Shown: positions 2,616 through 62,903, numbered from the stretch's first letter. The stretch is 64,000 nt of DNA from a bacterium (GCA_027310965.1 DAICZW010000001.1:37236-101235), one strand, 5' to 3'. Notes: generated by a model not told the origin, from the letters alone. A program made the numbers and translations.

Positions 2616-2712
2616 AGTATACCATATTGCACGGAAAAAAAATTATCGTGCGGTTGACAGCGAGCGAAGCGAGCGCGTTGGTTTTGAAAAAATTAAAGCA
2701 CTTCCCACTATG

Positions 2713-2783
2713 TCGGGCTGCCGGGAATTGAACCCGGTCTTTACGCACCCCATGCGCACGTACTGCCGGTATACTACAGCCCG
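2713..2783 (-). tRNA. tRNA-Pro (anticodon GGG); CCA not encoded
   Basis: Minus-strand cloverleaf: acceptor CGGGCTG/CAGCCCG; 3-bp D stem GTA/TAC with a GG-containing loop; anticodon stem TGCGC/GCGTA with loop AUGGGGU (U33, GGG, G37 as in Pro tRNAs); canonical T arm CCGGG-TTCAATT-CCCGG; discriminator A. Folded by eye only. Confidence 0.6.
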
Positions 2784-2891
2784 CATTTATCCAGCACCTT
2801 TTCAGAATACTTGCAGGGCCGGACGAATGCAAGGTGAATTTTTGCGGGATCGCCGGCATATTGGAAGCTACGGGAACCCAGAACTCGTATC

Positions 2892-3135
2892 AAAAGCAGG
2901 CCAGCGGGGATTGCCGGCCGTCGGCAGCGATAAAAAATGAATGCGTTCGCACATTCATTTTTTCAGAGCGAACCGGCGGATGAAATAAAGTTTCATAAAA
3001 TTTCCGAGCGAGCGGCGTGATCTCCTAACGAGAGAAACTCATGTCTTCCGAGGAGGGAATCGCGGTGCGCAGCCGGAAATGGACGCAAGACCTGCGGACC
3101 ATTTTTAGAAAAACTACTTTTGAGACGGGTTTTAC
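2892..3135. mobile_element. MITE-like repeat element, copy 1 (terminal inverted repeats AGAAC(T)CGT..CAAAAGCAGG / CTTTTGAGACGGGTT)
   Basis: Shares ~85-90% identity over >150 bp with the copies at 20629..20880 and 62726..62903. Has an internal long hairpin and the conserved core CATTTTYTCAGAGCGAACCGGCGGATGAAA. Confidence 0.6.
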
Positions 3136-3947
3136 TCTTTCTCGTATCTTTGATCTAAGTCGTTTACTATCTTTTTGAATGCGACAAGTTTTTGCCTCAA
3201 TGCGGGATCCAGCCGTTTTCTATAAAGTTCAAGGCCTTGTATCTGGGCGCCGAGCGTTGCAATAAAATATTTAAAGAGCCTTTTTTCGAATTCCGATTGT
3301 TCCTGCCCTTTGGCGAATTCCCTTATTCCTTTTTCGATCCTGTCTTTAGGGAGGGCGATATAGAAAAGAGGGATATGGTCCGCGGCGCCCGGCACGGCTG
3401 TTTTTTTTCCGTCCTTTTCGTCGAGGCGGAGTGCGTATTTGAGTTCCGCGCCGCCATCGTCAACGTTACGTTTCTGGACCAAGTTCTTTTTCTTCTCGTA
3501 GGCGTCGCCCGTCGTGTCGCCGACCTCGTCGAATGCGCATACCAAGTTCCCCGTTTCGCGGTCGAATATCAGCGTGTCGACATTGTGTTTTTTATCGTCG
3601 TACGGCGCCGAGCGCATCACGATGAATTTCCCGCTGAGGTTTTTTGTGAAAACGGCATAGGCGAGCATCTCAAGCTTTTCGCCGTCGGTGTGTAATTTTT
3701 TTTCCAAAAGCGCCGCGCTGTCGGTGCCTCCTTCTCTTGTGCGTTGAAAATCCTGTTCAACATCGGGATAGATGGCCTTATAAGCGCCGTTGCGCATATC
3801 AATGCGCCCGCTTTTATCCACGGGGATGCCTTCGGCGCGGTACGGCTCCGTCAAAATTTCGACAAAACTTTTAAGTTTTTCTATCCCTTCTTTTTCCTCT
3901 TCGCGTTCTATCAATGGATCGATTCCTGGCTTTTCGAATCCGGACAT
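3132..3947 (-). CDS. Hypothetical protein (charged, 271 aa)
   Basis: Long ORF with coding-like composition and no recognisable motif. Confidence 0.55.
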   Translation of the reverse strand: MSGFEKPGIDPLIEREEEKEGIEKLKSFVEILTEPYRAEGIPVDKSGRIDMRNGAYKAIYPDVEQDFQRTREGGTDSAALLEKKLHTDGEKLEMLAYAVFTKNLSGKFIVMRSAPYDDKKHNVDTLIFDRETGNLVCAFDEVGDTTGDAYEKKKNLVQKRNVDDGGAELKYALRLDEKDGKKTAVPGAADHIPLFYIALPKDRIEKGIREFAKGQEQSEFEKRLFKYFIATLGAQIQGLELYRKRLDPALRQKLVAFKKIVNDLDQRYEKE

Positions 3948-9222: not shown

Positions 9223-9261
9223 TATGAACGCTTTCGCAAACCGATAAATAGGAAGGTATAA

Positions 9262-9295
9262 AAATACTTTTATCGAAACAATCGTTCCGATAAAA
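9262..9295. promoter_or_regulatory. 13-4-13 palindromic operator-like motif ACTTTTATCGAAAC-AATC-GTTCCGATAAAAGT, copy 2 of 3
   Basis: The same palindrome occurs at 1797..1830 and 22033..22062, always in intergenic DNA. Confidence 0.45.
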
Positions 9296-9315
9296 GTATT
9301 TTTGCATTGCGCGTA

Positions 9316-11481: not shown

Positions 11482-11757
11482 GGAATCCGCATAAGATTTC
11501 TTTAGAACCCGTCTCAAAAATAGCTTTTATAAAACTCCCGTGGGTTTCGTGGTGTTTAATGAAATTTTGTTTTGAAAAAAATCTTCGCGGTATTTGATGG
11601 CCTATTTGAGGCAAGTGTCGAGTTTTATAAAAAAGAAAAGGGCTCGCCGCGTAAATATGCGGAGAGCCCTGTGAAAAAAATCGCACGATGCGATGGATTG
11701 AATGGATCAATATCCGCCTCAACAGAGGCAAAAAATAAAAATATATTGGTCGGGCGT

Positions 11758-13509: not shown

Positions 13510-13875
13510 ATGGCAAATAATTTAGAAGATATCATTACAAAGATAGAAACCTTGAGCGCGGTGGAGCTCGCGGAGCTCGTGCATAAGCTTGAAGAGAAGT
13601 TCGGCATCTCTGCGGCGGCTCCGGTCGCGGCGGCGGGTGCGGCGGCTCCGGCGGAGGACGAGAAGACCAGCTTTAACGTTCTTTTGAAATCGAGCGGCGA
13701 AAGCAAATTGAATGTCATCAAAGTCGTTCGTGAAGTGACGGCGCTTGGCCTCAAGGAAGCGAAGGATCTGGTGGATGCCGCTCCGAAAGTGGTGAAAGAG
13801 GGACTGAAGAAAGAGGAAGCGGAAGAGATAAAGAAAAAACTTGAAGCTGCCGGCGCGACGGTCGAGCTGCAGTAA
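13510..13875 (+). CDS. rplL: 50S ribosomal protein L7/L12
   Basis: Ala-rich hinge ([15 protein letters not shown]) and C-terminal [22 protein letters not shown]...ATVELQ. Confidence 0.95.
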
Positions 13876-19272: not shown

Positions 19273-20553
19273 ATGCTGGATATCAAGTTCATCAGGGAAA
19301 ATCCCGATATTATAAAAGACGTTGCGGTGAAAAAGGGTATCGACCCGGCTCTTGTCGACGCGCTGCTTGAGGCCGATAAAACGAGGCGGGAGCTCATCCA
19401 GTCCGCGGAAGCGATCCGCGCCGAGCAGAAAAAGACCAAGGACCGCGAAGAGGGGATGCAGTTAAAAGAAAAGTTCAAGCAGCTTTATGAAGAAGCGCGT
19501 TTTGCCGGCATCGAGAGGAAATTCGACGAGTTGATGGCGCTTATACCGAATATTATTTCGCCGGATACACCGATCGGGAAAAGCGAGAAGGACAACGTCG
19601 AAGTTTACCATTGGGGCGCGCCGAAAAAATTCGATTTCGAACCGAAGGATCATGTCGCGCTTGGACAAGCGCTCGATATCCTGGATTTTGAAAAAGGCGC
19701 GAAGGTCGCCGGATTCCGCGGGTACTATATAAAAAACGACGGTGTGCTGCTCGCGATGGGTATTATGATGTATGCGGTGCATATGATGGTCGAGAAGGGA
19801 TATGCGCCGATGATTCCGCCGACGCTTGTCCGAAGTTCCGCTCTTTTCGGGTCGGGATATTTCAAAGGGCTTGAATACGATCCCGGGGTTGATGAAATCT
19901 ACCAGATCGCCACTCCCGATAAAGAATCGACCGGCGAAGCGAGTAAGGATAAAAAATTTCTCGTGGGCACCGCCGAGCCGTCGCTTTTGGCATATTATTC
20001 CGACGAGGTTTTGAAAGAGGAAGACCTGCCGATAAAAACATGCGGTTACAGCCAGTGCTACCGGAGTGAGATCGGGAGTTACGGCAAAGAGCTGAAAGGT
20101 ATGTACCGCGTGCATGAATTCATGAAAGTGGAACAGGTGGTGGTTGCCCCCGCCGACATCGAAAAAGCGAACGCGCTGCAGGACGAGATGACGGGCATTT
20201 CGGGCGCAATGCACGAGGAGCTCGGATTGCCGTACCGGCGCCTGCAGATTTGTTCGGGCGACATGAGCGCGGGGAAATATCGCGCGTTCGATCTTGAGGC
20301 GTGGCTTCCCGGAATGAACCGGTGGGCGGAGACGGGTTCCGCGAGCGATTTTTTGGACTGGCAGGCGCGGAGGCTGAACGTGAAGTATGTCGATAAAAAC
20401 GGTGAGAAAAAATATGCCTATTTATTGAATAATACCGCGCTGCCCAGCCCGCGCATTTTCATCGCTATCCTTGAAAACTACCAGATGAAAGACGGCACAA
20501 TAGAAGTGCCGGAAGTGTTGCAAAAATATGTCGGGAAAAAGGTGATCGGATAG
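19273..20553 (+). CDS. serS: Serine--tRNA ligase
   Basis: MLDIKFIRENPDIIKDVAVKKGID coiled-coil N-terminus and class-II motifs (FRSE, GSGYFKGLE). Confidence 0.95.
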   Translation: MLDIKFIRENPDIIKDVAVKKGIDPALVDALLEADKTRRELIQSAEAIRAEQKKTKDREEGMQLKEKFKQLYEEARFAGIERKFDELMALIPNIISPDTPIGKSEKDNVEVYHWGAPKKFDFEPKDHVALGQALDILDFEKGAKVAGFRGYYIKNDGVLLAMGIMMYAVHMMVEKGYAPMIPPTLVRSSALFGSGYFKGLEYDPGVDEIYQIATPDKESTGEASKDKKFLVGTAEPSLLAYYSDEVLKEEDLPIKTCGYSQCYRSEIGSYGKELKGMYRVHEFMKVEQVVVAPADIEKANALQDEMTGISGAMHEELGLPYRRLQICSGDMSAGKYRAFDLEAWLPGMNRWAETGSASDFLDWQARRLNVKYVDKNGEKKYAYLLNNTALPSPRIFIAILENYQMKDGTIEVPEVLQKYVGKKVIG

Positions 20554-20628
20554 CAACGGAAGGCGTATGGTAGTGTTTAGGCGTTCCCGTACCGCGTCGC
20601 GGCGCGGCGGTGCGTAGAATCCTGTTCC

Positions 20629-20880
20629 AAAAGCAGGCCAGCGGGATTATGGAAATTTCCGAGCGAGCAACGCGGACACCGCACGAGGAATGCCGCGGGG
20701 TATTCCGAGGAGGGAATCGCGGTTCGCAGCCGTCGGCAGCGATGAGAAAATGAATGCGCGGACGCATCCATTTTCTCAGAGCGAACCGGCGGATGAAACA
20801 GGGTTTCATAAAATTTCCATACAACCCGCGGACTTTGCCTGAAAAGCTGCTTTTGAGACGGGTTCTCATCATGGCAATGC
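20629..20880. mobile_element. MITE-like repeat element, copy 2 (internal modules permuted relative to copy 1)
   Basis: Contains the AAAAGCAGGCCAGCGGG module, the GAGCGAGC...TCCGAGGAGGGAATCGCGG module, the long GAGAAAATGAATGCG/CGCATCCATTTTCTC hairpin, and the terminal CTTTTGAGACGGGTTCTC. Confidence 0.6.
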
Positions 20881-20905: not shown

Positions 20906-21778
20906 ATGGAAGTCGGCGATTATATTTCGGCGTCGCAAAAAAAGCGCAAACAGCGGCGTAAATATATCGTGATTGCGTTGTCCGTTATTGCGGCGTGCTT
21001 TGTCGTTTTCGGTTCTTACTGGATCGTTTTCAAGTCGCCGGTTTTTAGGATAAAAAATATCGACGTACGGGGAAACACAACGGTTGCGAGCGATACCATT
21101 ATTGCGCTCGTCCGCTCCTCCGCTTTTTCGAAAAATAATTTTACAGCATTATTGCTTGGGACGGGGAACATGCTTGCATGGCCGGATGCGATTCCGGCGA
21201 ACGTTATCGCGTCCGTTCCGAGCCTCGTCGGCGTGGACATAAAAAAGGATTATATGGCGCGCACGATTACGATAACGGTTGCGGAACGAAAACCGTTCGC
21301 CGTGTGGTGTTTTATGCCGAAAGGATCGGCCGCTGATGCGAATACCGGCGGCACGGCGACGGGAACGATGGTAATGGCCATGGAAACAAACGAACAATGC
21401 TCCTGGTTTGACGAAAGCGGGATCATGTTCGAGGACGGGTTTGATTCCGAAGGGAGCGTCGTCATGGCGGTGCATGATTATTCGCAGAGTAGCGCGCCCC
21501 TCGGCGCCGCCATTTTACCCGCTCGCTTCGTTCCCAATCTTATCTCAATCATAAAAGTGCTTCGCGCGAGCGGATTGAACGTGAAAGAGGTGCGGCTGAA
21601 CGATATCGGTCTCGAAGAAATCCAGGCGACGACCTATGACGGTCCGGATATTTATTTCAGTTTGCGTTTTCCCGCCGATGATGACTTGCCGGTTATTCAG
21701 AGCTTGATGGCCGATCCGGGATTCAAGAATTTGCAGTATCTTGATTTCAGGACCGAAGACAGGGCGTATTATAAATAA
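20906..21778 (+). CDS. FtsQ/DivIB-type cell-division protein (POTRA domain)
   Basis: Basic cytoplasmic tail, one TM helix, then FRIKNIDVRGNTTVASDTIIALV, typical of the FtsQ POTRA start. Confidence 0.5.
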   Translation: MEVGDYISASQKKRKQRRKYIVIALSVIAACFVVFGSYWIVFKSPVFRIKNIDVRGNTTVASDTIIALVRSSAFSKNNFTALLLGTGNMLAWPDAIPANVIASVPSLVGVDIKKDYMARTITITVAERKPFAVWCFMPKGSAADANTGGTATGTMVMAMETNEQCSWFDESGIMFEDGFDSEGSVVMAVHDYSQSSAPLGAAILPARFVPNLISIIKVLRASGLNVKEVRLNDIGLEEIQATTYDGPDIYFSLRFPADDDLPVIQSLMADPGFKNLQYLDFRTEDRAYYK

Positions 21779-21924
21779 AAAATTTACAGAGCAAGCATTT
21801 CCTCCGTTCATTTAATCGGAGGAAAGATAAGCAAAACATAAGTTTAAAAAATATCATCCGCTTCCGCGCGTCAATTGGAATCATTTTTATACGCGGAAAA
21901 AATAGAGCCCGTATCTAAAGAATA

Positions 21925-21963: not shown

Positions 21964-22032
21964 TCTTTGCGATAAAACTGAATATATTACCGCATTTCGC
22001 GCGTAAAAAATAAAAATATTGAAATACTGATC

Positions 22033-22062
22033 GTTTCGATAAAAGTATTTTATGGAGAAAAA
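22033..22062. promoter_or_regulatory. 13-4-13 palindromic operator-like motif, copy 3 (ACTGATCGTTTCGATAAAAGT half-degenerate)
   Basis: Same GTTTCGATAAAAGT arm as at 1797 and 9262. Confidence 0.4.
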
Positions 22063-28730: not shown

Positions 28731-28854
28731 AAAATCCGCGCAACCATTTTTTCGTCATGCGCGACTCCGGTCGGGAGTTCGCGTTTTCTAAAAGAGAAGA
28801 CGGGAAGCGCGGGTCGTCCGCTTTCGCGGACGATAACAGGAAAAATTCATCATC

Positions 28855-29879: not shown

Positions 29880-29995
29880 TGGTGTCGTCCTCGCCCCTCG
29901 AAAACTCGGGAGGAACTCCGGCGGGGATTCACACTTTAAGAAATAAAGACTGAAAGCATGGGTCGTCCGCCTTCGCGGACGATGACAGAAGGGAT
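29880..29995. repeat. REP-like palindromic element in the atpH-atpA spacer
   Basis: GTGTCGTCCTCGCCCCTCG...GGGTCGTCCGCCTTCGCGGACGATGACAGAAGGG. Confidence 0.6.
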
Positions 29996-32684: not shown

Positions 32685-34199
<1,515 letters not shown>

Positions 34200-34202
34200 T
34201 TC

Positions 34203-34345
34203 CTGCATTCTCTGTCGTCCTCGCCCTATGGAGTGGCGGCTTCGCCTACTCCATAGGGCGAGGATCTACGCTTGAAACGTATAATACAAAAAGCAGAATG
34301 GAGAAAGAGAAGATGGAAGCATGGATCCTCGACCGGGGCGAGGAC
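34203..34345. repeat. REP-like palindromic element pair in the atpD-atpC spacer
   Basis: TCTGTCGTCCTCGCCCTATGGAGTGGCGGCTTCGCCTACTCCATAGGGCGAGGATC ... GGATCCTCGACCGGGGCGAGGACGACGG. Confidence 0.65.
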
Positions 34346-34698: not shown

Positions 34699-35283
34699 GT
34701 GAAGAAAGAATATGAAGGCCGTTTAAAATTGTCGATTGAAGACCGCAATCTAGTAAGGAAACTTCGAATGGACGGTGTTTTGGATGATGCAAAAGGACAT
34801 TTTCTCGACCAGAATAATGGAATTATCCTGGTAACGTGCTCCGACGGGGATCAATTCTTCGATATTTTTGAACACCAGGCCCAGATGCAGGCGGGCCAAC
34901 AGCCTGCCGATCCGCGCATCCATACTTTTGGATGGCATGGCGGGGCACTCGCCTGTGCGCCCTGCTCGCCGATAAACGAGAGAAAAAAAGCCGATCTGGT
35001 TTTCCTCGACCAGATCAAAGCCGCTCGTAAAATGAAAAACATCGACATGGTGGCGCTTTATACGCACGCACCCTGCGGTGCGGCAAGCGGGAACGGTGTG
35101 AATCTCGTAAAGGCCTTTGCCCTGCAAGCCGGAGCAAAGGTAAAAATAAAAACCTTGAACAGGGGCATCAAGGTAGCTTGTTTTTTCCATGTTGATTACG
35201 GGAATGGCGTAAAGAGAACGTATTTTTTTTCGCGCAGAAAGTGGGATGCATGGGCGCGCGAGAACGCGAAGGAAGAGCGATAA
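34699..35283 (+). CDS. Cys/His-rich hypothetical protein translationally coupled to atpC; weak beta-carbonic-anhydrase-like motif pair (CSDGD ... HAPCG)
   Basis: Starts 11 nt after the atpC stop behind a GGAGGG RBS. Motifs VTCSDGD and YTHAPCGAASG resemble the beta-CA CxDxR/HxxCG zinc site, but the Arg is replaced and the spacing is longer. Confidence 0.45.
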   Translation: MKKEYEGRLKLSIEDRNLVRKLRMDGVLDDAKGHFLDQNNGIILVTCSDGDQFFDIFEHQAQMQAGQQPADPRIHTFGWHGGALACAPCSPINERKKADLVFLDQIKAARKMKNIDMVALYTHAPCGAASGNGVNLVKAFALQAGAKVKIKTLNRGIKVACFFHVDYGNGVKRTYFFSRRKWDAWARENAKEER

Positions 35284-35577
35284 CGGCTGTTATCGTCGCA
35301 GAGGTATGAAGTGATGCTTGATGCTATCTAAGATAATAATTTCGTCATTTTCGGGCCGCACATTTTCCGTGCGGCCCTTTTTATTTTTATTTTCGCGCCG
35401 CTGTCGAAAATAAGCAGGATTTTTGCCGTTTCCCCTCGCGGAGGAGGATCCGCACTTCCGGTCTTTTCCTTTGAATTTTCAAATCGCGGATATTCAGTAA
35501 GGCCGATGATGGCGGGAATGGAAATATGGATTTATGTTTGCGTGAAGACGACGGAACGGAAACCGGACGACGCCGGA

Positions 35578-37155
35578 TTACAAATCGTTGCCCGTATACG
35601 AAAGATTGAAGCTCTTGTTGATGAGGGGAAAATCGGGAACCATATTGCCCTGGCCCGCATAACCGAGGATGGTCCAGTTCAAAAAAGAAGGATCGCGGAC
35701 ATCCACGCCGCTTATTTCGCCGCGCGGGCCGGTCGTTATGAAATAGACGATATCGCCGCGCCATCCTTCAACGATGCCGACCGCAGTAGCGTCTTTTTTG
35801 AGATTGATTTTATCGATTGCCGCCGCGGCAGTCCCGTCGGGAATTTTTTTCAAAGCTTCCGTGATAAGACGGTGGGATGCGTACGCTTCTTCAATGCGGA
35901 CATGGAAACGCGCGTACACGTCGCCGCTTTGATAGAGGGGAATTTTCGGTATAAGCCGGTCATAGGCGGCATATGGATAATCGATCCGCGCGTCCTTGTT
36001 GATGCCGACGGCTTTTCCCGCGACGCCGATAACGCCGTGGTTTTTCGCCTCATCGTACGGCGTCACGCCGGTTTCTTTCAGGCGGTTGATAAGCGAAGAA
36101 CTTTGCTCCGCGACCGCAATCACTTCCGAAAAATCTTTTATGATAGCGTCAAGTTCGCCGATGAGTCGCTGTTTCGTTCCCATTGCGATGTCTTTGGTAA
36201 CGCCGCCGATCGTATTGACGCCTCTCAAAAAACGGCTTCCGGTCGTCCGTTCGTTGATCTGCATGATCATTTCCCGCAGCCGCGCCCCGTGCGCTCCGCC
36301 GAAATTGAATCCGGTATCAAGCATGATGGCGCCGATGTCGCCGAAATGATTCGCCAACCGTTCCAGTTCGGCATAGACCGTCCTCAAATAGCGCGCCCGT
36401 TCAGGGACGTCGATGCCCGCCAATCGTTCGATGGCCTGCGAGAACGCGAGCGAATGGCTGAACGAGCTGTCTCCGGAAATTTTTTCCGACAAGCGGAGTT
36501 TTCCCTCAAGCGGGAGAATCCCGAATAATTTTACGCTGCCTTTATGGGTATATCCGAGCCGCGGTTCGAGCAGGACGATTTCTTCTCCCGCGACGCTGAA
36601 CCGGAAATGCCCCGGTTCGATGATACCGGCATGGATAGGCCCTACCGAAATCTCATAGATGCCTTCTCCCGCGACTTTTTGGAAATCGTATCGTTCGCGC
36701 GCGATCGCCGGTCTTGTTTGCCAGTTGAAATCATTGCGCAAAGGAAAAACGCCGCGCGGCCAATTTTCATGCAGGATCATGGCTTCTTTTTTCGGATGTC
36801 CCGCGGGATCCAGTCCGAAAAAAGTTTTTATTTTTCGTTCGTAGTTCCACGCTTCGTGGATGAACGGGGAGACCGACGGGAACTCATCCGCATTTTTTAC
36901 GCATATGAACGGAACAAGGAAAATATTTTCTTTCGGCGCGCCGAAGACATACCAGATTTTAAAATAACCGCTTTCATTTCTTTCGTCCGTCGCGGTGATG
37001 ATTTTGAGCGACAATGCTTCGTCCGCGTACATCTCTTTTATCGTCGCGACGATGGTATCGATAGGCACTTCAAAAGTAGCCGTATTTTCGGACGGGTCAA
37101 AATGGAAATTTTCGGGAAGATATTTTTTCAGTTTTTGGGGGATGGCGTGCGTCAT
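35578..37155 (-). CDS. Fused NuoC/NuoD-like (HycE/HyfG-like) large subunit of an Ehr-type complex; NiFe-binding cysteines absent
   Basis: N-terminal 30-kDa-subunit-like domain, then GPIHAGIIEPGHFRF...EPRLGYTHKGSVK (NuoD-like HRGxEK region, with no RxCGxC). C-terminus ...SFNLSYTGNDL lacks DPCxxC. Confidence 0.8.
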   Translation of the reverse strand: MTHAIPQKLKKYLPENFHFDPSENTATFEVPIDTIVATIKEMYADEALSLKIITATDERNESGYFKIWYVFGAPKENIFLVPFICVKNADEFPSVSPFIHEAWNYERKIKTFFGLDPAGHPKKEAMILHENWPRGVFPLRNDFNWQTRPAIARERYDFQKVAGEGIYEISVGPIHAGIIEPGHFRFSVAGEEIVLLEPRLGYTHKGSVKLFGILPLEGKLRLSEKISGDSSFSHSLAFSQAIERLAGIDVPERARYLRTVYAELERLANHFGDIGAIMLDTGFNFGGAHGARLREMIMQINERTTGSRFLRGVNTIGGVTKDIAMGTKQRLIGELDAIIKDFSEVIAVAEQSSSLINRLKETGVTPYDEAKNHGVIGVAGKAVGINKDARIDYPYAAYDRLIPKIPLYQSGDVYARFHVRIEEAYASHRLITEALKKIPDGTAAAAIDKINLKKDATAVGIVEGWRGDIVYFITTGPRGEISGVDVRDPSFLNWTILGYAGQGNMVPDFPLINKSFNLSYTGNDL

Positions 37156-37163
37156 AGCGGTTA

Positions 37164-38603
37164 TTAATAGGCTGCGGCGGCATTATGCAGCAAGGTGATA
37201 AGGAACGGCGGCAGAGAGAAACTAAAGCAGATGAAAATAATGACGAGCGCGAGCGGCGGAATGAGGATCCAATAATTCCGTTCTCCGGAACCGGAACCGA
37301 CGTCATCCGGCCGTTCGCCGAACATCATCGATGACGTATGTTTCAGGAATCCGGCGAAGACCAGCGCGAACGCAAGGATTGCGACGGCGGTAATCACGGG
37401 ATGCATGCCAATGCCGCCGGCCAAAATGGAAAACTCGGTCAAAAATATGCCGGACGGCGGCACGCCGGTGATGGCCAGGAATCCGACGATGAAAAGTATG
37501 CCCGTTATCGGCAGCGCCGCAAGCGCCCCCCGTACCTGTTTTATTTTGGTCGTGCTGTATTTCAAAAAGATATTTCCGGAGGAAAGGAACAGCGCCGGTT
37601 TCACGAGGGCGTGATAGACCATATGAAGAACGGCGGCAAGCGCGGCCAGTCCGCCGAATCCGAAGCCGAGCGCGACAATTCCCATATTTTCGATGCTGGA
37701 ATATGCCAGAAGCCGTTTGTAATTTTTTTGCGTCAAGATGGTGAATGCGGCCAAAATAATCGAAGCAAGCCCGAACCAGATCAGAAGCGTCTGGGAAAAG
37801 TGTACGCCGAGGACGCTGTCCGTGACTGCCTTGAAGCGGATGATCGCGAGGAATGCCACGTTGAGCAGGACGCCCGAAAGCAAAGCGCTGATCGGAACCG
37901 GCGCTTTGCTGTGCGCGTCGGGAAGCCATGTGTGCATGGGCACCAGGCCGGCTTTCGTGCCGTATCCTATAAGGACGAATATAAAAGCGATTTTCGCGAC
38001 GGCGGGATTAAGATGCCCGGCATTCGCAAAAAGCATTCCCCAGCTGACGAGTCCGGTTCCGTGGATGGACGTGAAGTAGAGTAGCGTTCCGAAAAAACCG
38101 AGCAACAAACCGACCGAATTGACCATCAGATATTTCCATGCCGCTTCCATCGCCGACGGCTTATTGTAAAAACTAATCAGGAATGCCGTCGAGAGCGTCG
38201 TTGCCTCTATCGAAATCCACATGATGATCGGATTGACCGTGGCGACGGCAAAGAACATCGCCAAAAGGAACAGGTTGAACAAAATAAAATATTGTTTGAC
38301 TCTGCGGAAGCCGATGATATTTTTTGCGGTCTCTTCCCGGAGATATCCTTTGGAATAGAACGCCGTGGCGACTCCGACCGCGGCGACGGCGAGCATGATG
38401 ATCGCGCCCAGCGCGTCGACGGAAAAAAGCGGCAAAAAACTGTACGTTCCGAAAGAAGCGACCTCTATCGCGATTGCGACCGCCGCCCCGAACGAGCAAA
38501 GCGAAGCGGCGATCGAAACGGTTTCGATTGTTTTTCTTTGTCTGCTTGCGATGCCCGTAAGCGCCGCAACGAACAATGACGCGATGATAATGACGATGGC
38601 CAT
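37164..38603 (-). CDS. NuoN/NuoM/HyfF-like proton-translocating antiporter-type membrane subunit
   Basis: 479 aa, ~14 TM segments, PF00361-like core (WLPDAHSKAPVPISALL...). Confidence 0.8.
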   Translation of the reverse strand: MAIVIIIASLFVAALTGIASRQRKTIETVSIAASLCSFGAAVAIAIEVASFGTYSFLPLFSVDALGAIIMLAVAAVGVATAFYSKGYLREETAKNIIGFRRVKQYFILFNLFLLAMFFAVATVNPIIMWISIEATTLSTAFLISFYNKPSAMEAAWKYLMVNSVGLLLGFFGTLLYFTSIHGTGLVSWGMLFANAGHLNPAVAKIAFIFVLIGYGTKAGLVPMHTWLPDAHSKAPVPISALLSGVLLNVAFLAIIRFKAVTDSVLGVHFSQTLLIWFGLASIILAAFTILTQKNYKRLLAYSSIENMGIVALGFGFGGLAALAAVLHMVYHALVKPALFLSSGNIFLKYSTTKIKQVRGALAALPITGILFIVGFLAITGVPPSGIFLTEFSILAGGIGMHPVITAVAILAFALVFAGFLKHTSSMMFGERPDDVGSGSGERNYWILIPPLALVIIFICFSFSLPPFLITLLHNAAAAY

Positions 38604-38607
38604 GTGA

Positions 38608-39258
38608 TTATTCTTCTTTTAAATGTTTCATCACGGTGGTTTCGAACGAGCCGAAATGGCGGTAGATCATCGACGCGAATATGGATGCGATGGTCACCCA
38701 GATGACAAGATTGAACATAATGCCCGCCTGAAGCGCCGGCGATTGTTCCAATCCCGAGAGAACGGAAAACGCCACAATCCCGTTTTCAAGAGAAAGAATG
38801 CCGACCATCTGGGATAAGATGCCCTTGCGGTTGATGATAAGCAGGAACGCTATCAGCATGACGGCGATGGCGAGTGTTATCATCGGCGCATGGTCCGGCA
38901 TGATGGCGACCAGCGGCGCGAATATCCGCGAATGCGCGAGCGCCGCCAGAAGCGCAACGGCCAAAAGGCTGAGCGGCACGTTCAAATAAGTGCTGGCGGA
39001 GAAGGTGAGGCGGTGCTTTTTTATCAATCGCGTGAAGAACAAAGGAGCGAAGACGACTTTGACGGCAAAGGTCAGAAGCGCGATCATGGCAAGCGACACG
39101 GCGTGCGTTTCGAAAAAAGAACCGAATAGGATCAGGGTTATTGCCGCGGATTGTATGGCGTAAAGCGCGATGACCATTGAGTTTTTTCTCGTCACGTGCA
39201 AAAAAACAACCGTGAGAAAAACGATGATTACGAAGAATGATAAAAAGTTATATGCCAT
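38608..39258 (-). CDS. HyfE-like small membrane subunit (216 aa)
   Basis: 7-TM protein the same length as E. coli HyfE, in the position between the NuoH-like and NuoN-like genes of hyf-type operons. Confidence 0.55.
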   Translation of the reverse strand: MAYNFLSFFVIIVFLTVVFLHVTRKNSMVIALYAIQSAAITLILFGSFFETHAVSLAMIALLTFAVKVVFAPLFFTRLIKKHRLTFSASTYLNVPLSLLAVALLAALAHSRIFAPLVAIMPDHAPMITLAIAVMLIAFLLIINRKGILSQMVGILSLENGIVAFSVLSGLEQSPALQAGIMFNLVIWVTIASIFASMIYRHFGSFETTVMKHLKEE

Positions 39259-39260
39259 GA

Positions 39261-40193
39261 TTACATTATTACCATGCCGATTGCGATAATGCCCAGGATA
39301 AACGAAGTAAGAAGGAGGTCGGGAAGCCGGAAAAATCTGAACTTGGCGATGCTCGATTCAAGCGCGGCTATTGCGGCGCAAAAAACAAGGATTTTCAGCG
39401 CAAAAATTCCCAGTCCGAAAGCTATGGCGCCCATGCTTGGCGAAATTGCGATGCCCCACGGGAAGAACAGGCTCGATCCGAGCGCGATGAAGATCGCGAG
39501 CTTGTTGGCCGACGCCCATTCCATCAGCGCGAGCTTCTTCCCTGAATATTCAAGGATCATCGCTTCGTGGATCATCGTGAGTTCGAGATGGGTTGCCGGA
39601 TTATCGAAAGGAAACCGCGCCGTTTCCGCAAGAAGGACAATCAGGAATCCCGTGAAAGCGATGAATATCGGAAGGAAAAAAGAATGTCCGTTTAAGGATA
39701 TCGCCGCGGCGATGGAAAATAAGTTCGTTGTTTTGGCGATGACGGCGAGCGCGAACAGCGAAAAGATCAATCCGCCTTCCGCGAGCGCCGCAACGGTCAT
39801 CTCGCGGCTCGAACCGAAGCCGCCGAAAGAGCTTCCGGCATCCATGCCTGCGAGCGCCAGAAAGAACGTGCCGATTGCGAGGAGGTAGACGAGCGCCAGA
39901 AGATCGCCGGTGAACTTATTGGACAGGAACGCGGCGAATGTCGGGATGCCCGCCGCGGCGGCGAGCGTTACCGCAAAAACGATATACGGCGCGGCGCGGA
40001 ACAGCCACGATGCGTCGGTGCTGATAATTTCGTCCTTGTGAAGAAGTTTCCAGATATCTTTATACGGCTGGAAAATTCCCGCTCCTGCGCGGTTTTGAAG
40101 CACCGCTTTCATTTTCCTGATGATGCCGAGCATGAGCGGCGCGATCATCGGTAAAAGAAATAATTGCAATGTCCAAAGCAGGATGGTGATCAT
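39261..40193 (-). CDS. NuoH/HycD/HyfC-like membrane subunit
   Basis: 310 aa, 8 TM segments, conserved QNRAGAGIFQPYKD and loop regions of the NuoH family. Confidence 0.8.
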   Translation of the reverse strand: MITILLWTLQLFLLPMIAPLMLGIIRKMKAVLQNRAGAGIFQPYKDIWKLLHKDEIISTDASWLFRAAPYIVFAVTLAAAAGIPTFAAFLSNKFTGDLLALVYLLAIGTFFLALAGMDAGSSFGGFGSSREMTVAALAEGGLIFSLFALAVIAKTTNLFSIAAAISLNGHSFFLPIFIAFTGFLIVLLAETARFPFDNPATHLELTMIHEAMILEYSGKKLALMEWASANKLAIFIALGSSLFFPWGIAISPSMGAIAFGLGIFALKILVFCAAIAALESSIAKFRFFRLPDLLLTSFILGIIAIGMVIM

Positions 40194-40196
40194 GGC

Positions 40197-42251
40197 TTAA
40201 AATAAAGATGCCGATAATAACGCCGCGAGCAGGACGATCAGCATGTAGAGAATATACGCATTGATGTTGCCGCTTTGTATCTTTTTTACGTATCCGGATA
40301 TTTTCATGAAACCGAACCGGATCGGATCGTAGAATCGCACCCGGTAAAAATCGGCAAGATGCATGGTCGCCGTTCTTGATTTCGGAACATAGCGCATCGA
40401 GGCGTCGTTGTATTCTATGTCGGTCTGGAAACTCGGTTTCAATATTCCCTGGAAGATCATAATAATGGATCGCGAGAACCCGGTCGCCGTTATTTCCATG
40501 CGGGGCGTGAGATCGGTGCCGCAATCCCACGTGGCGCCGGTTTTGATATTTTGTTTCCGGTTGACGAGATATTTGATCGCGACTACGGAAAGGGCGAGTG
40601 CCAGAATGATGATGGCGAACAGCGCCGGCGCGGAAACCGAAGCAAAGCCGTTCACCGCGATTGTCTGGGCGGGATGAACCGCAACAATCGATGCCGCGTC
40701 GCGCAAGCCGGAAATATTTTTTACGACGGCATTCAGGATGGAAACGATGGAACCGGAAAACAGGCCGAATACGAGCGACAGGAGCGCGAGTCCCGCCATG
40801 CCAAACTGCAAAGAAAATCCCGATTCCTTCGCGCATGCGGCTTCATGGCTTCGGGGACGGGCGAGGAATGTCGCGCCGAACGCTTTTACGAAACAGGCGA
40901 GCGCAAGGCCGCTTGTAAGGGCGAGCGTTCCGGCCGACAGGATGAAGATCCAGACGACCAGGGAAGAGAACGAATAAATACCCGCGAAGAGCGACTGGAA
41001 TGTCAGCCACTCGCTGAAAAAACCGTTAAAAGGAGGGAGCGCGGCGATGGCCATCGATCCTATGAGAAAGAAAAAGGCGGTTTCGGGCATCCGTTTCATG
41101 AGCCCGCCGTATTCTTCGATATTTCTTGTGCGCGTTCCCTCGATAACGGAGCCGGCGCTCAAAAATAACAATGATTTAAAGACGGCGTGGTTCAAAGTGT
41201 GGAAAAGCGCGGCGATCATGCCCAATGCCGCGAGTGCCGGCATCCCGAGCGACGAGAAAACAAGCGCGCTGCCGATGCCGAGCAGGATGATGCCGATATT
41301 TTCGATGCTGTGGTATGCCAGAAGGCGTTTGATGTCGTGTTCGGTCAGCGCATAAAGCACGCCCAGCAAGGCGGATACGGATCCGATGACGAGTATCGCG
41401 ACGCCCCACCATAACGGCGCCGTCGTAAAAACATCGAAAAATAATTTGATCATCATGAATATCCCCGTTTTGATCATGACGCCGGACATCAATGCGGATA
41501 CGTGCGAAGGGGCGGCGGGATGGGCGTCGGGAAGCCAGATGTGCAAAGGGATGATGCCCGCTTTCATGCCGAAACCGATGAATGAAAAAATAAAGATCAT
41601 GTTTTTCGCGAACATGGGTATGGCGGCGCTGTTCGCTTTGATAACGCCGAAGTCGAACGATCCGGTGTACCGGTATAAAAGAAGGAATGCGAGCATGATG
41701 AAAGCGGTGCCGATGTGCGTCATGATGAAATAGAGGGATCCGGCTTTGATATTTTTCGGGTCGTTCCGGTCGTAGATCACCAAAAAATACGATGCGAGCG
41801 ACATGATTTCCCAGACGATAAGAAACAAGATTGCGTTGGATGCCGTAACCACCATCAGCATGCCGGCGATGAAGAAATGGTAAAAAAATCCCAGGGTGCC
41901 GATGGTGTATTTTTTATAATAATGTTTGACGTATCCTATGCCGTAGATCGAAGCGAAAAGCGCCACCAATGAAATGATAAAAATAAAAAACGCGGACAGC
42001 GCGCCGACGGCGAACGATATCGATAAAAAAGGAGAGAGCGCCGCGGCGATATGGAATGATAATGTCGTTCCGGAAATGAATATGGAAAGCGCGAAAATGA
42101 TGCCCCAGAGCGACCCGCCGACGGCGAACGCGCTGCTCCAAAAATTTGCAAGCGCGTCATTTTTCCTGAACGCCAATGCGCCCAAGGCTCCCGCGGCGAA
42201 GAATGAAAGCAGCAATAAAAAACCGCCTTGCGATGCAATGGATGCGATCAT
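40197..42251 (-). CDS. NuoL/HyfB/MnhA-like large antiporter-type membrane subunit
   Basis: 684 aa, ~17 TM segments, WLPDAHPAAPSHVSALMSG core. Confidence 0.85.
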   Translation of the reverse strand: MIASIASQGGFLLLLSFFAAGALGALAFRKNDALANFWSSAFAVGGSLWGIIFALSIFISGTTLSFHIAAALSPFLSISFAVGALSAFFIFIISLVALFASIYGIGYVKHYYKKYTIGTLGFFYHFFIAGMLMVVTASNAILFLIVWEIMSLASYFLVIYDRNDPKNIKAGSLYFIMTHIGTAFIMLAFLLLYRYTGSFDFGVIKANSAAIPMFAKNMIFIFSFIGFGMKAGIIPLHIWLPDAHPAAPSHVSALMSGVMIKTGIFMMIKLFFDVFTTAPLWWGVAILVIGSVSALLGVLYALTEHDIKRLLAYHSIENIGIILLGIGSALVFSSLGMPALAALGMIAALFHTLNHAVFKSLLFLSAGSVIEGTRTRNIEEYGGLMKRMPETAFFFLIGSMAIAALPPFNGFFSEWLTFQSLFAGIYSFSSLVVWIFILSAGTLALTSGLALACFVKAFGATFLARPRSHEAACAKESGFSLQFGMAGLALLSLVFGLFSGSIVSILNAVVKNISGLRDAASIVAVHPAQTIAVNGFASVSAPALFAIIILALALSVVAIKYLVNRKQNIKTGATWDCGTDLTPRMEITATGFSRSIIMIFQGILKPSFQTDIEYNDASMRYVPKSRTATMHLADFYRVRFYDPIRFGFMKISGYVKKIQSGNINAYILYMLIVLLAALLSASLF

Positions 42252-42829
42252 GATAGTGAGGCTGATTTTTTATGCTCGATATCGTTGAGGATCGCCAAAA
42301 GGTGGCGGAGGATGATTTTGGGGGAAGGAGGATCGCCCGGGATCTGATAATCGACGGGAATCACGTTATGCGCGCCGTCCAAAACCGCATATGATCCTCT
42401 ATAAATACCGCCGTCGATTGCGTCATCGCCGACCGCCACGACGATCTTCGGATCGGGCGTCGCCCGGTATGCGCGGACCAGCGCTTCGCGCATATTCCTT
42501 GTCACGGGGCCGGTCACCATAAGCATGTCGGCGTGTCTTGGTGAAGCGACAAAATGGATGCCGAAGCGTTCAATGTCGTAAAAAGCGTTCGAAAGCGCGA
42601 CCAGTTCCTGTTCGCAGGCGTTATCGGATCCGGCGTCGACCTGACGTATCGCGAGCGACCCGCGGAATAATTTCTTGACGCGGTCGCTTATTTTTCCTCC
42701 GAGAGCGGCGACCTCGTCTTTTTCCATAGCGCTGTCACGGAACGGGATGACGGGGCTTTTCGTCCGGAATATTTTTGTGAGTAGCCTCAACATGGATTGA
42801 ATGCGGATTGAATTATGATAATGCCGCAC
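42248..42829 (-). CDS. NuoB-like (hydrogenase small-subunit-like) protein with three of the four N2 [4Fe-4S] cysteine ligands replaced
   Basis: Aligns to NuoB across RFG...SPRHADMLMVTG...PDPKIVVAVG...VIPVDYQIPG. The Cys motifs become CCxxE>ACEQE, GTC>GPV, GAC>GDD and PGCPP>PGDPP. Confidence 0.8.
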   Translation of the reverse strand: MRHYHNSIRIQSMLRLLTKIFRTKSPVIPFRDSAMEKDEVAALGGKISDRVKKLFRGSLAIRQVDAGSDNACEQELVALSNAFYDIERFGIHFVASPRHADMLMVTGPVTRNMREALVRAYRATPDPKIVVAVGDDAIDGGIYRGSYAVLDGAHNVIPVDYQIPGDPPSPKIILRHLLAILNDIEHKKSASLS

Positions 42830-42869
42830 ATTATAATTTGCAAGAAAAAAATAACGATTTTTTTAAAGC

Positions 42870-42945
42870 GTGGATCCTCGCCCTGTGGAGTAGGCGAAGT
42901 CGCCACTCCATAGGGCGAGTCTCCGCGAGGACGACAAGAAAAGGC
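42870..42945. repeat. REP-like palindrome upstream of the Ehr-like operon
   Basis: GGATCCTCGCCCTGTGGAGTAGGCGAAGTCGCCACTCCATAGGGCGAGTCTCCGCGAGGACGAC. A near-identical copy occurs at 48700..48790. Confidence 0.65.
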
Positions 42946-43598: not shown

Positions 43599-43809
43599 TG
43601 AGAGTATATCCCAAGAGGAAATCTTTCGGTAGCGCGGTTATTTCGCGGAATGCCGCCGATTCCCTGAAACGCGACCCGCTTGATTTACCCCGAAAGAAAG
43701 GATAGAATTTTCGATAAAGATGCGTTGGTATTCATTTATAGAACCTGCTTTAAAAGTAAGACAGAGAGTTTGCTTAAAAAGTTATTTTTGAGACAGGTTC
43801 TCATCAATG

Positions 43810-43884: not shown

Positions 43885-44166
43885 CCCTTTGGGCACGTTT
43901 GAGATACCGCTGGGGCCTTCATGGTTCCAGCGGGTTTGCGACGGCCGATGCTCTTTAATCTCCACCGGGCAGCCTCTAAAGCGATAAATACTACAACTTG
44001 TTTCCCTGCCGGTCCTTGCCGCAGGGTCCATGCAGGAAAGTCCGAAAACCTTTGTTTTCTGATATACCGACCTCATGAGACGGGTTCTTTTTGCAACAGG
44101 AGGATCAGGAAGCGCCGCCTGCAAGTCATAGACTTCAAACGCGTCCGCCCAAGCGCGCATAAAAAT

Positions 44167-47055: not shown

Positions 47056-47200
47056 TGCCGATTAAAACTATTTAAAGAAACGTTTCGTAAGTCTGTTTTT
47101 GAGGCGGACTCTATTGCTTCGGCTGCAGAGGGGATTTTTTCGGTATTATAAAGGAGAATAGACGGCGGATGATATAAAAAAGTATTTCAAATACGTTTTT

Positions 47201-48599: not shown

Positions 48600-48830
48600 A
48601 GCGCCGATTCTGTCGCGGCATTTTCCCCTCCGCCGTCCCTTCGAAGGAGGGGATCCGTGCTTTTCGTCTTAGTTTGTGAGTTTTAAATCGTGAATTATAA
48701 AATTCTTAAAGCGTGGATCCTCGCCCTGTGGAGCAGGCAAAGCCGCCACTCCATAGGGCGAGTCTCCGCGAGGACGACAGAAAAAGCATATAGATCCTCG
48801 ACCAGGCCGAGGACGACGGAAAAGATGGGT
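48600..48830. repeat. Cluster of REP-like palindromes
   Basis: CCCCTCCGCCGTCCCTTCGAAGGAGGGGATCC hairpin; the GGATCCTCGCCCTGTGGAGCAGGCAAAGCCGCCACTCCATAGGGCGAGTCTCCGCGAGGACGAC copy; GGATCCTCGACCAGGCCGAGGACGACGG. Confidence 0.65.
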
Positions 48831-50974: not shown

Positions 50975-50984
50975 GGACTACGTT

Positions 50985-51060
50985 TTTCCTCTTCGGAAGC
51001 AGGGGCTCTCTTAACTGCTTCCGAAGAGGAAAAACTCCGTTTGTGGCAGAAGCAACGGAA
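50985..51060. repeat. Long perfect hairpin with the conserved loop GGGCTCTCTTAA (bidirectional terminator candidate after the response-regulator gene)
   Basis: TTTTCCTCTTCGGAAGCAG-GGGCTCTCTTAA-CTGCTTCCGAAGAGGAAAAA followed by CTCCGTTTG...AATAAGAAAC, as in the 61011..61210 array. Confidence 0.6.
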
Positions 51061-60996: not shown

Positions 60997-61010
60997 GGGA
61001 CTTCGCATTT

Positions 61011-61210
61011 TTATTTTTGAGGGACGGGCTCTCTTAAGTCCCTCAAAAATAAAAATACTCCGTCTGATGCGGAAATAAGAAACGAGGGACGGGTTCTCTT
61101 AAGTCCCTCAAAAATAAAAATGCTCCGTCTGATGCGGAAACAAAGGAGGGGTTCTTTTTGCTCCTTCGCGAATAAAAATGCTCCGTCTGGTGCGGAAATA
61201 AAAGAATGAA
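61011..61210. repeat. Tandem array of three ~62-bp units, each a hairpin with loop GGGYTCTCTTAA/GGGTTCT plus a conserved 3' tail AAAATRCTCCGTCTGRTGCGGAAA
   Basis: GAGGGACGGGCTCTCTTAAGTCCCTC repeated three times with compensatory stem changes in the third copy (AAGGAG...CTCCTT). Confidence 0.7.
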
Positions 61211-61272: not shown

Positions 61273-61812
61273 ATGAAAAAGAAAAATTCCGGCGGCAATA
61301 ATATCGGGTTGAAAGAACTTTTCAGCGAAGTGAAGAAAATAGGTTCTCGCATGGACGATCGCGATGTCGAAATAAGGAAGATCGGTGTCCTCATGGAAAG
61401 CCATGATATTGAAATAAAAAAGATAGGCGTCATTTTGGAAAGCCATGATGTCGAAATAAGGAAGATTGGTGTCCTTTTGGAAGAACGCGACGACAAACTC
61501 GACTTGGTTTTGGAAGGATATGCCGCGCTGGATAAAAAGATCGATGATCTTCACGAAGAGATGAATGAACGGTTTGCGATTGTTGATTTTAAATTCGGCA
61601 TTGTTTTTGAAGAAATAAACGGGATAAAAGGCGAGATTATTGTAATAAATGGACGATTGGAAAGAATTGAAGGACGGCTCGAAAAACTCGAAGTGCGGAT
61701 AGGGAAAGTCGAAGTACGGCTGGAAAAAGTCGAGGGAACGCTTGTGGAAATTCGCAGCGATTTAAATGCCGAAACGGATTGCGGCGAATTGGCTGTATTT
61801 AAAAGCCTATAA
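61273..61812 (+). CDS. Coiled-coil hypothetical protein with internal 14-aa (42-nt) tandem repeats
   Basis: RDVEIRKIGVLMES / HDIEIKKIGVILES / HDVEIRKIGVLLEE, and later RLERIEGRLEKLEVRIGKVEVRLEKVEG. Confidence 0.55.
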   Translation: MKKKNSGGNNIGLKELFSEVKKIGSRMDDRDVEIRKIGVLMESHDIEIKKIGVILESHDVEIRKIGVLLEERDDKLDLVLEGYAALDKKIDDLHEEMNERFAIVDFKFGIVFEEINGIKGEIIVINGRLERIEGRLEKLEVRIGKVEVRLEKVEGTLVEIRSDLNAETDCGELAVFKSL

Positions 61813-62007
61813 CTTATATCAAGATAGTCCGATAGGCAGCCGTAGGTTCTCTTCGCTCACTAATATCACGTGCGTAAGTTTGCGGGATGGCGGCGCGCCG
61901 CCGGCTTTGCGGCGCAAACCGTTCCGGCGGTTTGAAACGAGTGCTATACCCCGCCGCGTGAGCGCGCGGAGCTTCATTTTTTTTGAGACGGGTTCTATAC
62001 TGTTTTT

Positions 62008-62727
62008 ATGGCGGATAAATTTTCTGAGCTTAAAAAACTCGAGGCGGAAATGGTGGCGGATGCGTCGTTGCCGTTGCGCGAATCGAACTTAGTGTTCGGC
62101 GAGGGAAATCCTGATTGCGCCGTGATGTTCGTCGGCGAAGCGCCGGGCATGAACGAAGATCGTTTGCGCCGGCCGTTCGTCGGCCGTGGCGGACAGCTGT
62201 TGGACGGGATGATGCGAAACATCGGTTGGAAGCGCGAAGACGTTTATATCACGAATATCGTAAAGCGCCGTCCGCCGGATAACCGTGATCCGCTGCCGGA
62301 GGAAATTGCGGCTTATAAGCCGTATCTCGCGCGGCAGATCGCCATCATCCGTCCGCCGGTTATCGTTACGCTCGGCCGGTTCGCGATGCATTATTTTCTT
62401 CCCGATGCGAAGATGATGCGCGACCATGGCCGGGTGTTTGCCGTTCCCCGGGAGCCGTTTGAGCAAGCAGAGAATGAAGGTGCCTTTCGTCGTCCCGGCG
62501 AAGAATCACCGGCTGGGGATTATCTCATTTTTCCCGTGTTGCATCCCGCGGCGGCGCTCCGGTCGCCGCAGCAGATGATGCTTCTTTTGAAGGAAGATTT
62601 TAAAAAATTGCCGAATATCATTAAGGGCGATTTTATTCCCGTAATCGCGACCCCCGTATTTTCCATCGGCTCCGCGCGAAAAGAAAACAAAAATCCGGGA
62701 AAAGAAAAGCAGAGAGCGTTGTTTTAG
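62008..62727 (+). CDS. Uracil-DNA glycosylase, family 4
   Basis: VMFVGEAPGMNEDRLRRPFVGRGGQLL (GEAPG motif A) and HPAAALR motif B, with a C-terminal extension. Confidence 0.85.
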   Translation: MADKFSELKKLEAEMVADASLPLRESNLVFGEGNPDCAVMFVGEAPGMNEDRLRRPFVGRGGQLLDGMMRNIGWKREDVYITNIVKRRPPDNRDPLPEEIAAYKPYLARQIAIIRPPVIVTLGRFAMHYFLPDAKMMRDHGRVFAVPREPFEQAENEGAFRRPGEESPAGDYLIFPVLHPAAALRSPQQMMLLLKEDFKKLPNIIKGDFIPVIATPVFSIGSARKENKNPGKEKQRALF

Positions 62728-62903
62728 AACCCGTCCTAAAAGCATGCCGGCGGGGATTGCCGGCCGTCGGCAGCGAGGAGAAAATAAATGCGTCCGCGCA
62801 TTCATTTTCTCAGAGCGAACCGGCGGATGAAACAGAGTTTCATAAAATTTCCGTAAGACCTGCGGATACTGCTTAAAAAGCTGCTTTTGAGACGGGTTCT
62901 ATG
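62726..62903. mobile_element. MITE-like repeat element, copy 3, with both terminal inverted repeats intact
   Basis: Starts AGAACCCGTCCTAAAAGCATGCC and ends GCTTTTGAGACGGGTTCT. The left end overlaps the UDG stop codon. Confidence 0.6.

Follow-up and report, generated by a model that had tools for sequence, protein, structure and literature searches.

The genome of a small-genome Paceibacteria MAG contains a family of non-coding repeats (62–254 nt) that is real and far above chance. We examined approximately 84 kb of this one genome, namely the window (the whole 64-kb stretch of DNA that was analysed) and two extensions, of about 10 kb leftward (L014) and about 8.7 kb rightward (L017). Five complete copies and three or more solo ends were located at unrelated intergenic sites, and all long copies had a constant three-helix frame around a variable set of hairpin units. 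On balance, we lean towards reading the family as a lineage-specific, non-autonomous, selfish and hairpin-forming interspersed repeat, similar to MITE, BOX and REPIN elements. Elements of this kind are already known; the family itself is undescribed.

In the window, the right-end 16-mer TTTTGAGACGGGTTCT gave 12 matches at three or fewer mismatches (0.75 expected), and a 33-nt core gave 3 matches (0 expected). Four long copies were found: c1 (2880–3133, plus strand, 254 nt), c2 (20616–20866, plus strand, 251 nt), c3 (62726–62900, plus strand, 175 nt), which is the basic form without the unit X described below, and c4, located on the minus strand at 13534–13707 of the right extension (L017), about 7 kb past the window. 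The covariance model scored c1 at 140 bits and c3 at 210 bits. The initial annotation had placed three long copies of high mutual identity in the window. These copies are real, identity over the shared segments was 87–90.5%, and the start proposed for c3 was correct, whereas the starts proposed for c1 (2892) and c2 (20629) both fell 12–13 nt inside the left repeat, the true starts being 2880 and 20616.

The remaining complete element is a mini-element of 62 nt (43740–43801, plus strand) made up of the two terminal repeats and segment F alone. Its left repeat is AGAACCTGCTTTAAAAG, and it was matched at 37 bits (E=7e-6) by a covariance model built from the long copies. Four sites had initially been listed as solo ends. 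Those at 44073 and 61981 were indeed solo right ends (44073–44088, plus strand, 14/16 match, downstream of tRNA-Asp; 61981–61996, plus strand, 16/16 match), whereas the one at 43786 was the right end of the complete mini-element. The inverted end noticed near 11507 was a right end in minus orientation, located at 11504. It belongs to a decayed or truncated copy (11504–11580, minus strand; covariance model 13.9 bits, E=0.59) in which an exact right 16-mer is followed by about 75 nt of decayed interior, with identity to segments F, E and D dropping inward from 100% at the right end to approximately 55–65%. The stretch at 43905–44072 may be a strongly decayed interior belonging to the 44073 end. 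Two degenerate right-end-like motifs, each matching at 13 of 16 positions, were located upstream of an Nramp gene (47097–47112, plus strand) and downstream of the FtsQ-like gene (21904–21919, minus strand). The solo ends were right ends in every case.

The anatomy of the elements was obtained by module-by-module alignment and folding of the copies. The frame consists of three helices. P1 is formed by the two inverted ends (19–20 bp; consensus AGAACCCGTCTCAAAAGCAG/CTGCTTTTGAGACGGGTTCT) and was present in all five complete copies; P2, CC[R]GCGGG/CC[Y]GCGG, has 7 bp and one bulged purine and was present in 4/4 long copies; P3 is TTGC/GYAA, with a longer version, TTGCGG/CCGCAA, in c4 and AT/AT in its place in c2. 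Two kinds of hairpin unit were found within this frame. The C-D unit begins with hairpin C, in which an outer helix CCGTCGG/CCGGCGG with a conserved G·U pair is followed inward by a GC/GC step and then by a 15-bp inner stem with a tetraloop; hairpin D is ATGAAAC-NNN-GTTTCAT. The 14-bp stem that the initial annotation had noticed before the core was present, as a stem of 14–15 bp. The E-X unit consists of motif E, (G)GAAATTTCC, and X, a hairpin of about 70 nt. The units are parted by the motif GGAAATTTCC / (G)GAAATTTCC.

The content of the frame differed among the long copies: C-D and E in c3, C-D, E-X and E' in c1, E-X, C-D and E in c2, and E-X and E in c4. From its left repeat, c1 runs through P2/P3, hairpins C and D of the core, motif E and unit X to E', and closes with right part F and the right repeat. 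In its core (2919–3005, plus strand), the outer helix CCGTCGG/CCGGCGG and the inner hairpin of 15 bp are accompanied by hairpin D (ATGAAAT/GTTTCAT) and by motif E, and its X hairpin (3006–3074, plus strand) lies 3' of the core, preceded by AAAATTTCC and followed by GGAAATGG. In c2, the left repeat and P2 are followed by E and X, then by hairpins C and D of the core, and finally by E, F and the right repeat; here the X hairpin (20661–20730, plus strand) lies 5' of the core (C, D and E; 20731–20818, plus strand) and has GGAAATTTCC (20651–20660) just before it. In c3, the core (C, D and E) occupies 62765–62852 on the plus strand and X is absent. The internal modules of c2 had been described as circularly permuted; the rearrangement is present and is explained by interchangeable units that occur in any order. 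The mini-element retains P1 alone and about 25 nt preceding the right end. The elements thus fall into size classes of 62, 175 and about 250 nt, and both ends are kept in every class. RNAalifold applied to an alignment without X recovered P1, P2, P3, C and D unguided, in agreement with the single-sequence folds.

The copies are predicted to fold very strongly. Fold z-scores ranged from −5.9 to −8.3 on the plus strand, and the z-score was −7.1 for c3, the sole minus-strand fold that was compared with shuffled sequences. The tetraloop of the 15-bp hairpin was TTCG, CGGA and TCCG in three copies, with the stem conserved, and two of the three loop positions of hairpin D were variable. Among the base-paired sites of P1, P2, C and D, four double changes from the consensus were found, and each restored Watson–Crick pairing. 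Three of these compensated pairs were in P1 of the mini-element and the fourth was a G-C to A-T change in the 15-bp hairpin of c1. With the same number of substitutions placed at random, 1.70 double changes would be expected (P=0.054). This covariation signal is suggestive and not decisive, the copies being few in number and related to one another. Compensatory covariation in the stem before the core had been taken initially to imply a selected structure. One double change was indeed found there in c1, together with two A·C mismatches, and the family-wide excess is weaker than that claim. Template-switch correction of quasi-palindromes during replication could yield the same double changes without selection. 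RNA folding was better on the plus strand than on the minus strand in 5/5 copies, by 3.9–15 kcal/mol. Despite these better folds, the single-sided changes, which gave G·U on the plus strand 11 times and A·C 8 times, favoured neither strand. All four single-sided changes in the 15-bp hairpin gave A·C, indicating that this stem pairs better on the minus strand.

The two ends of the element were unequally conserved. Mismatches to the right 16-mer in its eight occurrences were 0, 0, 0, 0, 0, 1, 1 and 2, whereas those to the left 16-mer in its five occurrences were 1, 2, 2, 3 and 4 (Mann-Whitney P=0.006; P=0.009 within the five complete elements). The solo ends at 61981 and 11504 matched the 16-mer exactly and were no more degenerate than paired ends. 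In addition, the 9-mer ACGGGYTCT occurred nine times, against 0.45 expected, and all occurrences were intergenic. This one-sided conservation indicates that the right end looks sequence-specific and that the left arm mainly keeps complementarity.

The GGGYTCT motif was also found in the loops of four other hairpins with unrelated stems in the window, at 50984–51043 (20-bp stem), 61008–61056, 61084–61120 and 61142–61170, and a further hairpin of this type lies at L017 12228 on the minus strand. The loop was GGGYTCTCTTAA in three of the four window hairpins and GGGTTCTTTTTG in the fourth, and the loop has ACGGGYTCT in common with the right end of the element. The stems were wholly different (TTTTTCCTCTTCGGAAGCAG, TTTTTGAGGGAC and AAGGAG). 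The hairpins at 61008–61170 form three tandem units of about 60 nt between ychF and the next gene. A conserved loop on co-varying stems suggests a recognised hairpin motif.

The elements lie in varied genomic contexts. The neighbours of c1 are a tRNA-Pro gene (2712–2783, minus strand) and a 271-aa ORF (3132–3947, minus strand); c1 is antisense to both, and the TAA stop of the ORF (3132–3134) overlaps the last bases of c1. c2 is located between serS (19273–20553) and the FtsQ-like gene (20906–21778). The UDG gene (62008–62727) ends in a TAG stop codon (62725–62727) composed of a T and the first two bases of c3. Alignments with UDG homologues end at about residue 206–210 of 239, indicating that the last 30 or so residues are lineage-specific; such a C-terminus is compatible with an insertion at the 3' end of the gene. 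A promoter-like site (43680–43708) lies upstream of the mini-element, which stops 6 nt short of tRNA-Asp (43808). The end at 61981 is 11 nt before the UDG start codon, directly after a terminator-like hairpin (61954–61969). Both the 11504 copy and c4 are between convergent genes. Element ends faced the starts of the FtsQ-like gene at 39 nt, UDG at 11 nt, tRNA-Asp at 6 nt and a small Cys-rich ORF beside c4 at 25 nt, and they faced gene 3' ends about equally often (serS, GH18, the bPH_2 gene and the 271-aa ORF).

We searched the copies for coding and regulatory signals. No promoter or terminator common to the copies was found. A right-end promoter using TTGAGA as a −35 box was rejected, as no copy had a usable −10 box 16–18 nt away. 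An intrinsic terminator was also rejected: a terminator-like hairpin (GCCGGC stem followed by TGCTTTT) occurs on the minus strand of c1 and c3 only and not in c2 or c4. The elements do not qualify as integron attC sites, lacking the GTTRRRY core, or as tRNA-like 3' ends, lacking a T-arm. Most frames contain stop codons and no frame is open across all copies, which argues against a small protein; a translated query of the frame open through c2 had no match among 5.8 billion protein clusters. A scan with the covariance models of Rfam 15 gave nothing at the gathering score and noise only (≤19 bits) at E≤10. The initial annotation had raised a regulatory, terminator or small-RNA role from the proximity of several copies to gene starts. 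Some ends are near gene starts, as proposed, whereas gene 3' ends are approached as often, no promoter or terminator is shared, and no Rfam family was matched; a regulatory or small-RNA function thus has no support.

The proposal of a MITE-like family stood in part. The elements are dispersed, non-coding and intergenic, with inverted repeats of about 20 bp and a structured interior, whereas MITE status was not established. No direct repeat longer than 2 bp flanked any copy. The left flanks were mostly T or TA, and the right flanks were TA (c1, c3, 61981 and 11504) or TCATC (c2, c4 and the mini-element). TA could be read on both sides of c3 alone, and this TA/TA is palindromic and indistinguishable from a longer inverted repeat; no target-site duplication was visible at the copies. 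Gene tables, Pfam and NCBIfam revealed no transposase, integrase or RAYT-like protein in the 84 kb, which also contained no autonomous insertion sequence with matching ends. The G+C content of the long copies was 0.49–0.53, against about 0.50 for the window, and they thus do not show the AT-richness that is common, although not universal, among MITEs; the mini-element alone was AT-rich (0.32).

Exact look-up of proteins encoded in the window showed that its sequence is present, at 99.9–100% identity, in three MAGs (GCA_027308955.1, GCA_027308945.1 and GCA_027308915.1), as well as in the Logan assemblies of SRR9320195-99. The high identity of these assemblies means that they carry no polymorphism information. 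No empty site or insertion polymorphism was found among them, and the relatives were non-syntenic at the insertion sites. Logan short-read contigs ended repeatedly within c2 and c3, as expected of a multi-copy repeat. The SerRS relatives carry the source names Patescibacteria or Candidatus Paceibacterota. In relatives with SerRS 80–88% identical (L009 and L011), the family, the end motif and the E motif were absent from intergenic DNA, and spacers were short; the median spacer was about 140 nt in this genome and about 65–100 nt in the relatives. Gene order near serS differs between the window and L009/L011. A chimeric protein query made from genes of the relatives, for orthologues elsewhere in this genome, had no match. 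The invariant 20-nt core gave only chance hits, in coding DNA of unrelated bacteria, among GTDB species representatives and JGI metagenomes, the latter including those that hold the 88% and 80% SerRS relatives. Scans of viral contigs for the end motif and for the core gave a single chance match, in a coding region, and BLASTN against phage and plasmid collections gave no match. The absence from relatives and from public collections indicates that the family is confined, as far as visible, to one species-level lineage.

Known bacterial repeats share many of these properties. BOX, RUP, Correia and REPIN elements are described as having paired terminal repeats, modular size variation, compensatory stem changes, enrichment near gene ends, and singlets beside doublets (PMC3049150, PMC3116915). 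The BOX elements of Streptococcus pneumoniae (boxA-boxBn-boxC; PMC3049150) are, like the present family, modular and tightly folded interspersed intergenic repeats with paired terminal modules, which vary greatly in size by the number of internal modules and are probably non-autonomous and co-transcribed with their neighbours. BOX carries tandem copies of one box, whereas the family here carries two different hairpins in either order, and target-site duplications have been reported for BOX (PMC3049150), whereas none is visible here. No similarity in sequence to BOX was apparent and the hosts belong to different phyla; the likeness would be architectural only. The Correia/NEMIS elements of Neisseria, RUP and the Nezha MITEs are also small and non-coding, with inverted repeats of about 20–26 bp, long forms set apart from short ones by internal segments, locations next to or into gene ends, and paired ends that would form a long RNA duplex if transcribed. 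Unlike bacterial MITEs, the present family has no demonstrable duplication and no cognate insertion sequence in the 84 kb, is not AT-rich, and has a right end that is far better conserved than the left.

The RAYT-mobilised REPINs (PMC3116915) resemble the family in having a pair of conserved sequences in inverted orientation, which fold into a long hairpin as ssDNA or RNA, compensatory stem changes, singlets as well as doublets, and vertical and lineage-restricted inheritance. REPINs make no target-site duplication, and none is visible here. The family differs from REPINs in having no RAYT gene in the 84 kb, in its larger and more complex internal hairpins, and in its solo ends, which are no more degenerate than paired ends, whereas REP singlets are. 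ERIC/IRU elements, as generally known and as described in PMC3049150, are imperfect palindromes of about 130 nt whose longer forms arise from insertions of about 70 nt at fixed internal sites, a plan that the family shares. They are transcribed within neighbouring operons, as the elements here would be, and have no sequence relationship to the family. Orientation effects of ERIC on mRNA stability have been shown by experiment. IS91-type rolling-circle elements insert beside GAAC or CAAG without duplication and need mainly one end; by analogy, the AGAAC start and the single dominant end of the elements here may be comparable.

If the selfish-repeat reading is correct, a trans-acting enzyme encoded elsewhere in the genome would have spread the copies to unrelated intergenic sites. 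Such an enzyme would recognise the well-conserved right 16-mer TTTTGAGACGGGTTCT within the terminal hairpin and would need from the left arm complementarity only. Internal units would then have been gained, lost and reordered through recombination or slippage at the repeated E motif, and solo right ends would be remnants of older copies. The inserted elements would presumably be passengers in untranslated regions, with one in the tRNA-Asp leader and two supplying stop codons, and the long duplex of P1 could, as a side effect, influence how RNA is processed or how stable it is.

Several observations stand against this reading. No enzyme, duplication or mobility was seen and five complete copies only were available; the unequal conservation of the ends does not fit a classic two-ended transposase; and the exact solo right ends fit a selected motif better than neutral remnants. 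Because duplication and AT bias are lacking, the ends are unequal and the solo ends are intact, an explanation centred on the end motif and, with less force, one centred on RNA keep some weight. According to the former, the functional unit would be the right-terminal (TTTTGAG)ACGGGTTCT, a putative binding or processing site for a host protein, and the long elements would be hairpin elaborations of it that were spread by recombination or gene conversion instead of transposition, much as REP/BIME-type sites act as protein-binding sites. We regard this as rather unlikely, with a modest chance of being correct. It is consistent with the 16-mer being exact in 5/8 ends, among them solo ends with decayed interiors of about 55–65% identity, with the exclusively intergenic excess of ACGGGYTCT (9 vs 0.45 expected), and with GGGYTCT in the loops of four hairpins with unrelated stems (GGGYTCTCTTAA in three). 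However, the placement of the motif with respect to genes is inconsistent, about half of the ends facing gene starts and the rest 3' ends; it is absent from intergenic DNA of the relatives and has no known binding protein, and the explanation fails to account for the retention of both ends in mini and long forms alike.

A host-selected structured RNA, in which the copies would be transcribed and act either as multi-copy small RNAs or in cis, as structures within leaders or 3'-UTRs, and selection on RNA function would keep the frame and hairpins, appears unlikely, and somewhat more so than the motif-centred explanation. The very strong fold z-scores, the better plus-strand folds in 5/5 copies (3.9–15 kcal/mol), the conserved G·U in the CCGUCGG/CCGGCGG helix, the restoration of pairing by 4/4 double changes and the position of the mini-element within the tRNA-Asp leader would all agree with it. 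On the other hand, no Rfam family was matched at E≤10, no promoter or terminator is common to the copies, c1 is antisense to both neighbours and c4 is between convergent genes, and the ratio of 11 G·U to 8 A·C changes, with all four in the 15-bp hairpin being A·C, does not point to a plus-strand RNA. Units that are present, absent or reordered would be odd for a single conserved RNA function, and relatives lack the family. Chance or low-complexity similarity, or an assembly artefact, has a negligible probability, as the match counts were far above those of shuffled controls and the repeat sequence was identical in three independent MAGs and several read-set assemblies. A further possibility, which we consider improbable, is that the elements are a new type of single-strand (ssDNA or RNA) hairpin replicator, with a three-helix frame and swappable hairpin cargo, copied by an enzyme of this Paceibacteria lineage that would recognise only the right-terminal ACGGGTTCT. 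The presence of the motif in the loops of an independent hairpin family, with completely co-varying stems, points to a dedicated motif-binding factor.

Other repeats were found in the same sequence. A second palindromic intergenic family, GTCGTCCYCGCGGAG...GCGAGGATCCRCGCTTT, occurs as a long form of 84 nt, which contains an inner hairpin of 15 bp (42860–42943, 48703–48786, 34220–34273 and L014 8067–8138), and as a short form of about 35 nt (4315, 22839, 29353, 31540, 48624, 34321 and 48790). It often lies directly 3' of stop codons inside operons (mraZ and atp genes), and the relatives lack it. The third repeat, CTTTTATCGAAAC-AAT-CGTTTCGATAAAAG (1793–1836, 9260–9303 and 22009–22052), is perfectly palindromic, has runs of A and T on its flanks, and looks like a bidirectional terminator. 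The fourth is a hairpin, TCGTCCGC-N4-GCGGACGATGACAG, in spacers of the ATP synthase operon (28797–28839, 29946–29988 and 32711–32738). Within a coding region, three tandem 42-nt (14-codon) repeats were observed at 61363–61482, in a coiled-coil-like gene (61273–61812).

Some neighbouring loci were also recorded. A complex-I-like or Mrp-like cluster at 37164–42829 (minus strand) contains NuoB-like (Oxidored_q6), NuoH-like (NADHdh) and 4L-like proteins and two Proton_antipo_M proteins; Patescibacteria are usually described as being without respiratory complexes. For three consecutive ORFs at 34699–37167 (194, 340 and 207 aa), neither Pfam nor NCBIfam gave a match; a long ORF (35578–37155) overlaps them on the opposite strand, so that the gene model here is tentative. 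In a relative (JGI 3300025912; L012 1–397), a 2250-residue product in the gene table carries RpoB (Rpb2) and RpoC (Rpb1) domains, an apparent rpoB-rpoC fusion in a related Paceibacterium.

CPR bacteria have very small, streamlined genomes, and genomes of this type are usually thought to lack selfish or structural DNA. Repeats in CPR genomes have hardly been described, and a literature search found nothing relevant. The MAG examined here holds at least four lineage-specific intergenic hairpin repeat families, and its spacers are approximately twice as long as those of relatives according to the gene tables; together these suggest that selfish or structural DNA expanded in a recent burst. In practical terms, the repeats break short-read assemblies of the organism, and the stop codons and leader structures that they supply will be misread by annotation pipelines. 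Two features of the family are unusual, namely its architecture of a frame with cargo and the stronger conservation of one end. If the elements were hairpin replicators, they would represent a REPIN-like partnership between host and element in an ultra-small CPR genome.
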